Shown: piece by piece, positions 21,989 to 25,077 of the stretch | Position numbering within the stretch: the first letter of the stretch is position 1 | How the letters are laid out: the number at the start of each line of letters is the position of its first letter | Source: Eledone cirrhosa | Lineage: Eukaryota | Assembly: GCA_964016885.1 (NCBI GenBank) | Contig: OZ024741.1 | Location: forward strand, 344,100,001 to 344,164,000 | Direction of reading: 5' to 3' | DNA: 64,000 bases | The notes under the pieces: generated by a model | Told to the model about the DNA's origin: nothing | The model's database searches: none | What the model saw: the letters and a program-made list of their open reading frames with translations, nothing else | Made by a program: the position numbers and the translations under genes

Positions 21989-23520
21989 CAGTGGCGTAGC
22001 TAGGGTGTGGCAAGCAGGGCACATGCCACGGGCGCCATAATTAGGGGGGGGGGGGCGCAATTTCGACCTAGATCGATTTACATCCATGTCGTTTTTATCC
22101 TTTTTAAAAATATAAGCCAAAAATGAAGCATGTGATTTCTTGATAGCCGACTTCCACGCCATGTCTAGTGCACTAGACACAAAAACACGCCCCCCTCCTC
22201 ACTGACAGCAGGGTGGGTTACAATTATGCGGGTGCTATTTTTAGTTATACATTGCAAAACAGCGGATACCACACTTGACTCACAAAACCACCCCCTCCCC
22301 CACACACTGACTGAAGGGACGTAGTTTTGGACGTGCAACTGGTGGACACGCAGGCGCTATTTTTAGCAATGCATTGCAATCGCCAATACAAGATAATTAT
22401 AATTATGAAGCTGGTTTACAAAACAGAGTAGTTTGTCTTTTACAACTGGTACATAAGACGTATAGAAAAGGTATCATATCCAAATGGCCAGATAGGATCG
22501 GATAGCTTCTATTAGGAATTCAATTTGACTCCAGTTTAGATGGTTCAATGTTTTCTTCTATATTACAGTCCGTCAGAATTTACTAAATCGTATCCAAAAA
22601 GCAAGATACTATGGTCTGCTGATTGATTCGACCCCTCACCAGGGGCACCGAGAACAACTGTCAAAAGTTGTGCGATATTTCGATGTTGATTTCAATATGA
22701 AGACGGTCGTTGTGAGGGAATCTTTTCTTGGATTCATTCAAGTAATCAAAAAAGATGCCGCAAGCCTTGTTGAAACAATCGTGAAAGAGCTAGAAAAAGA
22801 TGACCTACCACTGCAGAACTGTCCATCGCAGTGCTACGACAATGCTGCCATAATGTCTGGGCACCGCAGTGGGGTTTCTGCAGAGAATGACAGAGAAGAA
22901 GAATTTGATTCACTTCGTTAATTGCGATAACCATTCACTTTATTTGGCTGGTCTTCATGCAGCCAAACACGATTCTGCTATGATGTATTTTTTCAGTTGC
23001 ATTGACTCGTTATACAACTTTTTTTCTCGTTCGACACGACGATGGGAAGCCTTAAAGAAGTTGTTCCAGTGGTTGTTAAATATCCTTCCGACACACGGTA
23101 GAGTGCTAGATGTACCGCAGTCAGACCGGTTGCGAATTATTTGATGCTGATTGTTCAAGTTTTCGAAAGAATTAGTGATGATGAAACAGAGACATGCGAG
23201 AGTAGAAGTGATGCCAGTAATCTCCATACGCGGATACTGAGTTATGAATTCCTGAACTTGATTGGATTCTGGAACACGATTCTCTCACGAATTGACCGGG
23301 TTCAAAAGAGACTTCAAGATCCAAGAATGAATTTTCACGATGCTGCAGCTGATATAGGAGCCCTTCAACTTTATTTTAAAGAAGAAGGAACATCTTTAAT
23401 CCACGAGTCTCTTGAAATGGGCTTCGACCTCTGCCAGAAATGGAATGTCGATTTTCCGAGGAGGCGAGGAAGACGACAAACCAATACCGAAATTACTGAG
23501 GATGTCGAGGTGGCTGCCAG
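21989..23520 (+). mobile_element. hAT (Tip100/ZMYM1-like) DNA transposon remnant: left TIR plus central transposase
   Basis: CAGTGGCGTAGCTAG terminus at 21989. From about 22565: YYGLLIDSTPHQGHREQLSKVVRYF, ESFLGF, QCYDNAAIMSG, FVNCDNHSL (CxxH), DTR*S. Frameshifted. N- and C-termini and the right TIR are not seen. Confidence 0.88.
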
Positions 23521-25077
23521 AAAATTTGCTGACTGTTATTTCCGGTAACTTTAACTGGCACGTTAATCAGAACCATTTCTGGCGGGTCTTCTGACGTGTA
23601 CAGCACGTTATTTATGAGTGTTCTGTTTGCTACCGTATATATGCCGCCAGTATTTTCAAACGTTCCGGCAGCTGTTGTTGATTCCCTTAGACATTGGTAA
23701 TTCAATCCGAATTCGTTGTATTCCGGTAGTGTGATATCTTCTTCCCAGCCGGTTCGAGTGATCTTTCTAGTCTTATTCATATCTAACCAATACCTTCCTT
23801 GGTCTAGTGTTGTACCTCCGAATGGTGCAGATGTTAAGTTGACACAACCATCCATTATCATAAACTTGCTTACGATTGATGATGAGCGTTCGACCATTTT
23901 CCGTTGTTTAATATCGTCCCGTGTTGAATGGCACAACCTCCCGATTCTGTATTGGTTAACGGTTTCTTTAACAGTGATTTATTAACCCATCTATGTGTGA
24001 ACGTGTCACCTTGACGAACCTCTCTTACTTCATGTAGTCCTCTCCAGTCATGTAGATTTCGCATTTGTCATTAACGAATGTTCCTCCGTAATCTTATACT
24101 AGTTGTTTAGGCGCCATATAAAAATATTCATAATTAGGTAGCATTAGCTCGGTGATATCTGTAGGATGTATGTTTTGAAAACCGTCATTGGGTATGGAAG
24201 TAATACCTCTTAAATTATTATACCCTATGTATTTTCCTCTGTCTACGTATATTTGAAAATACGGTAATGGATTATTTATGAACTGATCTTCTCCTCGTTG
24301 TACTATCCATTCAGAGCACATTATATTCGATATCTTAAATCCGGCTTCTATTACTCTATACGATGTCGCAAGTTTCAAATGTGCCTCCCATTCGATTGGT
24401 TTAACCCACGAGGTACAATAGTAGGGAACTAAATAATCTTTTGATTTGCAGTGTCCTCTGGTCATAGTATTTTTCAATGCAGGCGGAGGGTTAAGTTTAT
24501 CTTGTGTTAGTTGTAATACTTCGAAACTACCTACTGCTTTATTCATATCTGTGCTTTTTACACAGTTGTGATACTTTCGTGTGAAGGTGATCGATTTCCT
24601 GTAAGGTCCTGTTGGTGAGGGTATGGTGTCGCCCTGACCGTGTGCTGTACCACCCCATCCACCTCCTCCGTCGTTTCTATCAGTTTCGCCATCCGTCTCC
24701 ATGTTAGCCATATTATTATCGACACTATTACCAGTATTATTAGGCTGCTCATGTCTAAAGTAGTTATCAAGGCCGAGATAATGTTTGGCAGAGATTGCTG
24801 CTGATGCCAATATCCCAACCGGTCCTGATTGGATTGCTTCTTTGATAAATTTCTCATCTGCGTGCCAAGTTCTGATATCTTGTTGTCCATACGCTAGATC
24901 GTGGTCTTTAGCGGCTACGTCTAGTTTATTTCTAGGAACCTCAAAAATGTTTTCTTTTTATGTCTGTTCCTGGTCCTAGAAAGTCGTATCCTGATACTGT
25001 ATATGCTTTAGAAGTACCTGGTTTTGATTCTTTATCAAAGTCTTCTTTAGAATGTTTCCTCTTCGCCCAGGAGGCAT
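23515..25077 (-). pseudogene. VP1: Endogenous parvovirus/densovirus VP1 capsid gene with PLA2 domain, frameshifted and 3'-truncated
   Basis: Joined frames: MPP/AKRKH, YTVSGYDFLGPGT (Ca-binding loop), PRNKLDVAAKDHDLAY...ADEKF (PLA2 catalytic motif), Gly-rich NDGGGGWGG, SITFTRKYH, VKPIEWEAHLKLATSYRVIEAGFKISNI, EVRQGDTFTHRW, PPEMVLINVP. These are collinear with parvoviral jelly-roll capsid motifs. Confidence 0.9.

Follow-up and report, generated by a model that had tools for sequence, protein, structure and literature searches.

What kind of virus left the broken capsid gene that lies on the minus strand at 23,525-25,077 of the stretch analysed here, 64,000 nucleotides (nt) of contig OZ024741.1 (positions 344,100,001 to 344,164,000; hereafter the window), and how was its genome arranged? 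The gene, which encodes a viral capsid protein (VP) with a predicted phospholipase A2 (PLA2), is an ordinary decayed endogenous fragment. Because sister copies elsewhere in the genome place VP before the nonstructural gene NS1 on one strand, the source virus was likely linear and capsid-first, and the window element would be the left half of such a parvovirus-like genome in broken form (probability about 0.8). A preliminary description of this DNA had reported the capsid gene and its PLA2; the terminal hairpin and TATA box, the abrupt end at a hAT transposon, an overlapping open reading frame (ORF) in the +1 frame, the sister copies and the reversed gene order go beyond it.

The capsid gene and its protein

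The following features of the capsid gene were delimited in the window:
23,525-25,077, minus strand: capsid (VP) gene in broken form, spanning roughly codons 1-514 out of about 600, with four frameshifts and one stop
24,858-24,991, minus strand: the calcium loop (FLGPG), catalytic HD and downstream Asp of the predicted PLA2, split by a frameshift
24,649-24,711, minus strand: Gly-rich stretch preceded by the probable first residue of the major capsid protein, a Met at 24,711 or 24,702, read from sequence

The gene starts with an ATG at 25,077 and a basic AKRK stretch; GYDFLGPGT lies at 24,991-24,965, the catalytic HD at 24,903-24,898 with ADEKF after it, the Gly-rich stretch at 24,669-24,649, and EDPPEMVLINVP close to the end. 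All capsid and PLA2 motifs named in the preliminary description were found at the places and in the order given there, and the candidate Met stands where parvoviral VP2 typically begins. Against an open sister frame, the window gene aligns over codons 12-514 in four pieces at 61-69% identity, and the first codons lie in a fifth reading frame. The broken minus-strand gene is therefore upheld, with its four frames revised to five pieces separated by four frameshifts (near 25,065, 24,950, 24,060 and 23,890), plus an in-frame stop at 24,094-24,096. Its lower end, previously set at 23,515, also shifts: viral DNA terminates at 23,525, and the ten bases beyond are part of a hAT transposase.

Three public runs of a single sample, which may be the assembled individual, gave contigs that cover the VP gene without gaps at a depth of about 2-8 and with 0-1 differing letters, so the breaks are present in the DNA and are not assembly errors; frameshifts caused by sequencing error are ruled out by these contigs as well. 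In the same runs, depth on the adjoining transposon is 300-400. A reduced-representation run gave no depth on the element and no RNA run was listed as carrying it, neither of which bears on its expression or presence. The element likely yields no capsid today and would be a source of small RNA at most.

The identity of the protein was assessed with profiles and with a modelled fold. The Pfam PLA2 family (PF08398) matched the open sister frame at E 6e-10 and the broken window frame at E 0.004, below the cut-off, and these values together speak against a chance match. Alignments retain the HD and calcium-loop motifs, with Phe replacing the Tyr of vertebrate parvoviruses, and the VP profile matched VP1 of adeno-associated virus (AAV) and goose parvovirus at E 3e-11 and, weakly, the capsid of a shrimp metallodensovirus. 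VP1 is thus predicted to carry the N-terminal PLA2 that characterizes Parvovirinae and Densovirinae. The VP core matched none of the Pfam capsid families. Its fold was modelled from the unchanged open sister frame with a 108-row alignment, reaching a predicted local distance difference test (pLDDT) score of 70.7, compared with only 28 for a single-sequence model of the same frame. In a comparison with 48,161 chains, the top 20 were all parvovirus capsids (Z 18.5-10.2; best match over 283 residues at a root-mean-square deviation of 3.9), and the next row (Z 6.5) was a rice PLA2 placed on model residues 5-101. Foldseek returned parvovirus capsid entries in all top 50 rows of the PDB and parvovirus names in 49 of the top 50 rows of a viral library, at a low sequence identity of 10-16% for the structural matches; the Atlas pointed to parvovirus capsid clusters at 0.96, which, given without an alignment, is a lead only. 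Through the open sister frame, VP is accordingly modelled as a parvovirus-type jelly roll. Profile and fold both support the earlier proposal of a parvovirus-type capsid with PLA2, and the structural check suggested there placed parvovirus capsids, not an unrelated fold, on top. An origin of the PLA2 in a Polinton or adintovirus was ruled out, as it runs into a parvovirus-type jelly roll and its neighbours are NS1 genes. Full-length relatives, at 38-39% identity, were found only among Logan proteins, from contigs of 3.8-4.5 kb.

Sister copies and gene order

A search of the genome with the longest VP frame of the window yielded 31 matches, one of them an open frame of 622 codons (L003); NS1 searches yielded 58 and 74 matches and a second capsid family 70. 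The copies form two lineages, A, to which the window element belongs, and B, whose NS1 proteins are 23% identical. From among these matches, 40 stretches in 31 regions were chosen for examination. The closest long paralog of the window element has 71% DNA identity, and sisters range from 67 to 71%. Among copies, four-fold degenerate sites are 39% identical to the reference and proteins about 60%, suggesting that diverged viruses integrated separately. The window holds no NS1. In sister copies, NS1 matched Pfam Parvo_NS1 (E 1e-16 and 5e-18) and AAV Rep (E 3e-14); motifs of a superfamily 3 (SF3) helicase occur in both NS-A and NS-B, as does an HFH motif, so that NS1 is predicted to combine an SF3 helicase, on which classification in the family is based, with, by motif only, an HUH endonuclease.

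Same-strand VP and NS neighbours no more than 1.2 kb apart numbered 38 in the 31 regions. In 22 of these pairs, the end of VP leads to the start of an NS gene of the same lineage (7 in A and 15 in B), with 50-81 nt between VP stop and NS start in 20 of the 22; nine further pairs, which are fragments or join the two lineages, have VP before NS as well. A junction from NS end to VP start within one lineage was found in none of the 38. All 22 intact same-lineage junctions therefore run from VP to NS, the reverse of the NS-left, VP-right order described for Parvoviridae. Hairpins stand before VP and after NS: among 11 candidate ends, selected by an inverted-repeat scan or by position, 9 folded with z <= -7.9, and strong folding, with stem sequences that differ, was seen in four of the six type A left ends. 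Lineage B includes a head-to-head dimer with 957-nt arms and a tail-to-tail duplication with 633-nt arms, and such palindromic dimers are expected of rolling-hairpin intermediates. As read from integrated copies, the genome was likely linear with hairpin termini. The order also appears to hold outside this genome, since P0190, a distant relative of NS-B (37.5%) on an 89-kb contig of the European Nucleotide Archive (ENA), has an N-terminal extension that corresponds to another frame of a B-type VP end (frame-test score 138, with 0 of 200 shuffles as high and the best of them at 52; controls 30-44).

Several points weigh against a linear, capsid-first source virus. Seven of the 38 pairs run from NS to VP, being fragments, cross-lineage pairs or pairs across a hairpin; five of the 15 B junctions come from near-identical copies, and the regions were drawn from match lists rather than from all matches. 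Two of the six type A left ends fold poorly (z -2.0 and -0.9), and for P0117, a relative of type A, the frame test did not reach significance (16 of 300). For the window element itself, the gene order is taken over from sisters with 67-71% DNA identity. No relative and no free viral genome turned up in scans of viral and metagenome contigs, and the Logan relatives are known here as proteins without gene context. As regards classification, an SF3 tree of 24 rows, with long branches and a single named outsider (an uncultured densovirus, 33.5% identical in the helicase), did not place the lineages; because of this, and because the gene order departs from the described one, the element is filed as parvovirus-like and unclassified. 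In helicase, capsid, PLA2 and hairpins it otherwise behaves like a parvovirus.

Additional features were observed among the sister copies. Lineage B copies L033, L034, L035-L036 and L037 (on C998, C5, C10 and C14, respectively) are 99.8-100% identical over 1-3 kb, end at different points and include head-to-head and tail-to-tail dimers, which suggests very recent integrations or active infection. A tandem array of A and B genomes occupies C12:9,072,000-9,089,000 (L015-L016), where a repeated piece of about 400 nt precedes a VP-A and a VP-B and short junction sequences recur. Another cluster of A and B, at C2:345,365,000-345,396,000 (L052, L025 and L026), lies 1.24 Mb from the window and has a hairpin with 92-nt arms that resembles the one in the window. 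Such A/B clusters could be PIWI-interacting RNA (piRNA) loci. In L013 (8655-8788), an open VP frame ends in a fold-back duplication, its last 20 or so codons differing from the usual VP end.

Terminal hairpin and integration site

Four features delimit the viral DNA in the window:
25,174-25,311, no strand assigned: left terminal DNA hairpin with a perfect stem of about 39 bp and an imperfect AT-rich tip, from inverted repeat and folding
25,104-25,110, minus strand: TATA box some 27 nt ahead of the ATG, of predicted function, in what is likely the left (capsid) promoter
25,312-25,360, no strand assigned: host repeat next to the hairpin, present in many copies (36 matches at 92-96% over about 48 nt)
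21,959-23,524, plus strand: 5' half of a multicopy hAT-type DNA transposon (DUF4371 transposase; Pfam, 39 matches)

The hairpin, about 100 nt upstream of the VP ATG, folds at -48.7 kcal/mol (z -15), a value equalled by none of 200 shuffles. It is regarded as viral because sister copies share its inner arm, the AGAGGTGCCC box, the TATA box and the ATG; the TATA box recurs at the matching position in most type A copies. The host repeat outside the hairpin marks the left limit of the viral DNA, a junction that rests on the assembly, as the hairpin is spanned by none of the listed run contigs. On the other side, the hAT fragment has 39 other matches in the genome (95-97%) that end at 23,523-23,525, and its transposase ORF is cut midway at 23,524, exactly where viral DNA starts. 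Two run contigs cross this junction by about 50 bases. The endogenous state claimed earlier is confirmed, the element lying on a 416-Mb contig among host repeats with its right junction bridged by run contigs. Clean insertion of an intact transposon was ruled out, since the transposase is severed within its ORF; both VP and transposase lack their 3' halves, most simply through one deletion. At the left edge of the hAT fragment (21,823-21,981) there is a palindrome with 79-nt arms, 99% perfect, and similar palindromes are frequent in other fetched stretches.

An overlapping frame in lineage A

One further ORF overlaps the capsid gene:
24,558-24,893, minus strand: open +1-frame ORF, ATG at 24,890, 110 codons, one predicted transmembrane helix

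The predicted helix lies at about 24,767-24,711 and is followed by W-R/K residues. In 14 lineage A copies, the +1 frame over the PLA2 and the VP1/VP2 border contains 13 stops in 1,437 codons, compared with 376 in 4,517 codons elsewhere and with 108 in 1,437 for the +2 frame over the same region. Four-fold sites are 60% identical in this region and 77% over the helix, against 39% elsewhere. All nine aligned copies have a single hydrophobic stretch ending at Trp and basic residues, with a Kyte-Doolittle 19-mer maximum of 1.6-2.8. An open +1 frame over PLA2, apparent synonymous constraint and a predicted helix together suggest an ORF of the X/ARF1 type. In the available text of PMC10891878, parvovirus B19 X and PARV4 ARF1 likewise lie in the +1 frame of VP1 over PLA2, show lowered synonymous variation and are predicted to have a transmembrane segment; the present ORF differs in its invertebrate host and in a helix that covers the PLA2 end and the VP1/VP2 border. 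It was absent from all four lineage B frames tested. The case is weakened by the choice of the region after it had been seen, by the relatedness of the copies, and by a composition-aware probability of no stop of 0.0002-0.025 per copy (four frames). In the window copy, chance suffices to explain an open +1 ORF, given four frameshifts in 1.55 kb.

Alternative explanations

Circular source viruses, in which capsid-first order would merely mark the opening point at a single hairpin origin, are improbable. Such a topology has been reported for some large parvo-like viruses, and circular parvo-like genomes are mentioned in the available part of bioRxiv 10.1101/2024.03.25.586562; the C12 and C23 arrays contain NS followed by VP, and no free genome was seen. 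However, none of the 38 pairs joins an NS end to a VP start of the same lineage, left and right hairpins differ, the palindromic dimers suit linear rolling-hairpin intermediates, and the outer side of the window hairpin is host repeat. A slightly lower likelihood is assigned to A and B being two segments, or a helper and its dependent partner, of one virus system. Each lineage has its own PLA2-bearing VP and a full NS1, the NS1 proteins share only the 23% identity noted above, the termini differ by eye, and many loci contain a single lineage, all of which disfavors this arrangement even though five places (C12, C23, C25, C2 near 345.37 Mb and C841) have pieces of both lineages no more than about 30 kb apart and a segmented parvovirus is described in the accessible text of PMC13426907.

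Very little weight attaches to an ordinary NS-then-VP virus whose VP-to-NS junctions arose from head-to-tail concatemers or later host rearrangement. Tandem arrays and rearranged pieces are indeed common (C12, C25 and C841), but terminal DNA would be expected between VP and NS, where only 50-81 nt without a hairpin are found; moreover, TATA or acceptor signals are conserved in the gap, the hairpins flank the VP-NS pair on its outer sides, and the order is repeated over many contigs, two lineages and another assembly, so that this explanation is already largely refuted. Equally remote is co-option of the window copy, with promoter and open +1 ORF giving a host membrane protein or an antiviral role. 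Hairpin, TATA box and +1 ORF are intact in the window; yet a 330-nt stretch would escape four frameshifts in 1.55 kb about 4 times in 10 by chance, no close paralog or ortholog was seen, and the constraint on the ORF, measured between copies, most simply dates to the viral phase. A linear virus with the capsid gene on the left remains the preferred source of the window element.

Proposed expression and history

The linear, capsid-first source virus would have replicated by a rolling-hairpin mechanism driven by its HUH/SF3 NS1. In lineage A, VP1 would come from the left promoter, with leaky scanning adding the +1 membrane protein as well as VP2; NS1 would come from a second TATA promoter, located where VP ends. 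The left TATA box of this lineage lies 27-47 nt before the VP ATG, which leaves no space for a leader exon, and the opening 410 nt of type A copies revealed no shared GT[AG]AG donor (1 of 7), so the intron model proposed below for lineage B is not extended to the lineage of the window. An internal TATAAA precedes NS-A by 48-55 nt in six of eight copies, against a background of 0.12 per 110 nt. Taken together, the lack of leader space and donor and the internal TATA box make two promoters likely in lineage A, capsid on the left and NS1 internal; the count is tempered by two of the eight NS-A starts being approximate and by some boxes falling within VP codons.

In lineage B, NS1 was instead likely expressed from the left promoter, with an 18-codon exon spliced across the whole capsid gene. 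In 10 of 10 copies, a stop-free mini-ORF of 18 codons lies ahead of the VP ATG, with a GT donor at its end in eight, and single changes in this putative leader exon comprise 155 synonymous and 44 non-synonymous ones. Ahead of NS-B, an in-frame CAG follows a pyrimidine tract in 12 of 12. As donor and acceptor are both in phase 0, lineage B likely nests its capsid gene within an NS1 intron. Two mutated donors among the ten copies, and a conserved Met two codons past the tested start column of NS-B that would permit an unspliced start, argue in the other direction.

At the present locus, a germline integration would have been followed by insertion of the hAT transposon and then by a deletion that took the 3' halves of VP and hAT together with NS1 and the right hairpin, after which the remainder would have decayed neutrally.

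Host, known relatives and implications

Molluscan hemocyanin genes, each with some seven functional units, were located in the genome at C1:173.74-173.91 Mb and at C26:21.93-22.02 Mb. Their best single-unit scores were 654 and 647 bits, to 4yd9_C and 1js8_A, which we take to be squid and octopus hemocyanins, compared with 456-502 bits for other entries. Seven hemocyanin units mark octopods, and an octopod host is likely. In Octopus vulgaris, an 84-Mb sequence also carries a lineage A capsid fragment whose annotation is that of a hypothetical host protein (P0015; CAI9735766.1). Hemocyanin and this relative bear out the cephalopod host suggested in the preliminary description.

Its suggestion of a divergent, possibly undescribed lineage holds in part. 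The lineages are divergent, but a 2016 table already lists short cephalopod NS and VP fragments that, by eye, belong to the same lineages. Francois et al. (PMC5013282) reported parvovirus-related sequences from four cephalopods, with the mollusc sequences branching outside known genera; the NS/VP fragments came from Octopus bimaculoides, O. vulgaris, Sepia and Euprymna. Compared by eye only, the Euprymna text is close to P0010 (lineage A) and the O. bimaculoides text resembles NS-B. These fragments measure 565-765 nt or 246 aa, and the available part of that paper contains neither a genome map nor a gene order and describes neither hairpins nor an overlapping ORF.

Monosense Parvoviridae, such as AAV, B19 and Hamavirinae (e.g., Syngnathus scovelli chapparvovirus), share the single jelly-roll capsid fold with the modelled VP (Z 18.5 to 9nek, 18.0 to PARV4 and 17.7 to AAV, at 10-16% structural identity), along with a Gly-rich stretch, an NS1 with HUH and SF3 motifs, hairpin ends and a size of about 4.4 kb; a PLA2 at the VP N-terminus is shared with Parvovirinae. 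Unlike in these viruses, VP here lies upstream of NS1. The accessible text of PMC11357303 assigns NS to the left and VP to the right in all parvoviruses, and that of PMC12115719 gives the same order for the family. In the Swazi bat-associated megaparvovirus lineage, known largely from metagenomes and endogenous copies, the available portion of PMC13426907 likewise places a PLA2 ORF upstream of NS1, with the capsid gene, devoid of PLA2, downstream of NS1; by contrast, PLA2 and jelly roll form one ORF upstream of NS1 here, and nothing follows NS1. In the text available from PMC11822035, the phrase 'reversed genome organization' is applied only to picorna-like viruses. Our search of open-access literature, which covered neither the supplementary maps of bioRxiv 10.1101/2024.03.25.586562 nor the 2025 taxonomy proposal, found no capsid-first parvovirus.

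The left promoter of parvoviruses is usually viewed as making NS1 first, which then activates the capsid promoter. Two deep lineages with inverted order and two predicted solutions for NS1 expression would indicate that the NS-left order is not obligatory. With odds somewhat above even, we propose that cephalopods host still-circulating, unclassified linear parvoviruses that span at least two genera and have the order hairpin-capsid-NS1-hairpin, in which lineage A has an internal NS1 promoter and an X-like membrane protein and lineage B keeps its capsid gene in an NS1 intron. The copies provide near-complete maps of cephalopod DNA viruses, for which the literature examined gives only fragments. 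The near-identical B copies suggest a recent or current octopus virus, of relevance to culture and aquaculture, and the putative +1 membrane ORF would carry the X/ARF1 pattern into an invertebrate lineage.

Other elements in the window

Remains of non-LTR (long terminal repeat) retroelements occur at 27,279-29,358, 49,485-54,887, 58,402-61,314 and 19,950-20,240; a reverse transcriptase (RT) was recognized by Pfam at 28,531-29,358, two further endonuclease/RT-like elements were judged from translations, and a GIY-YIG fragment was detected by Pfam.

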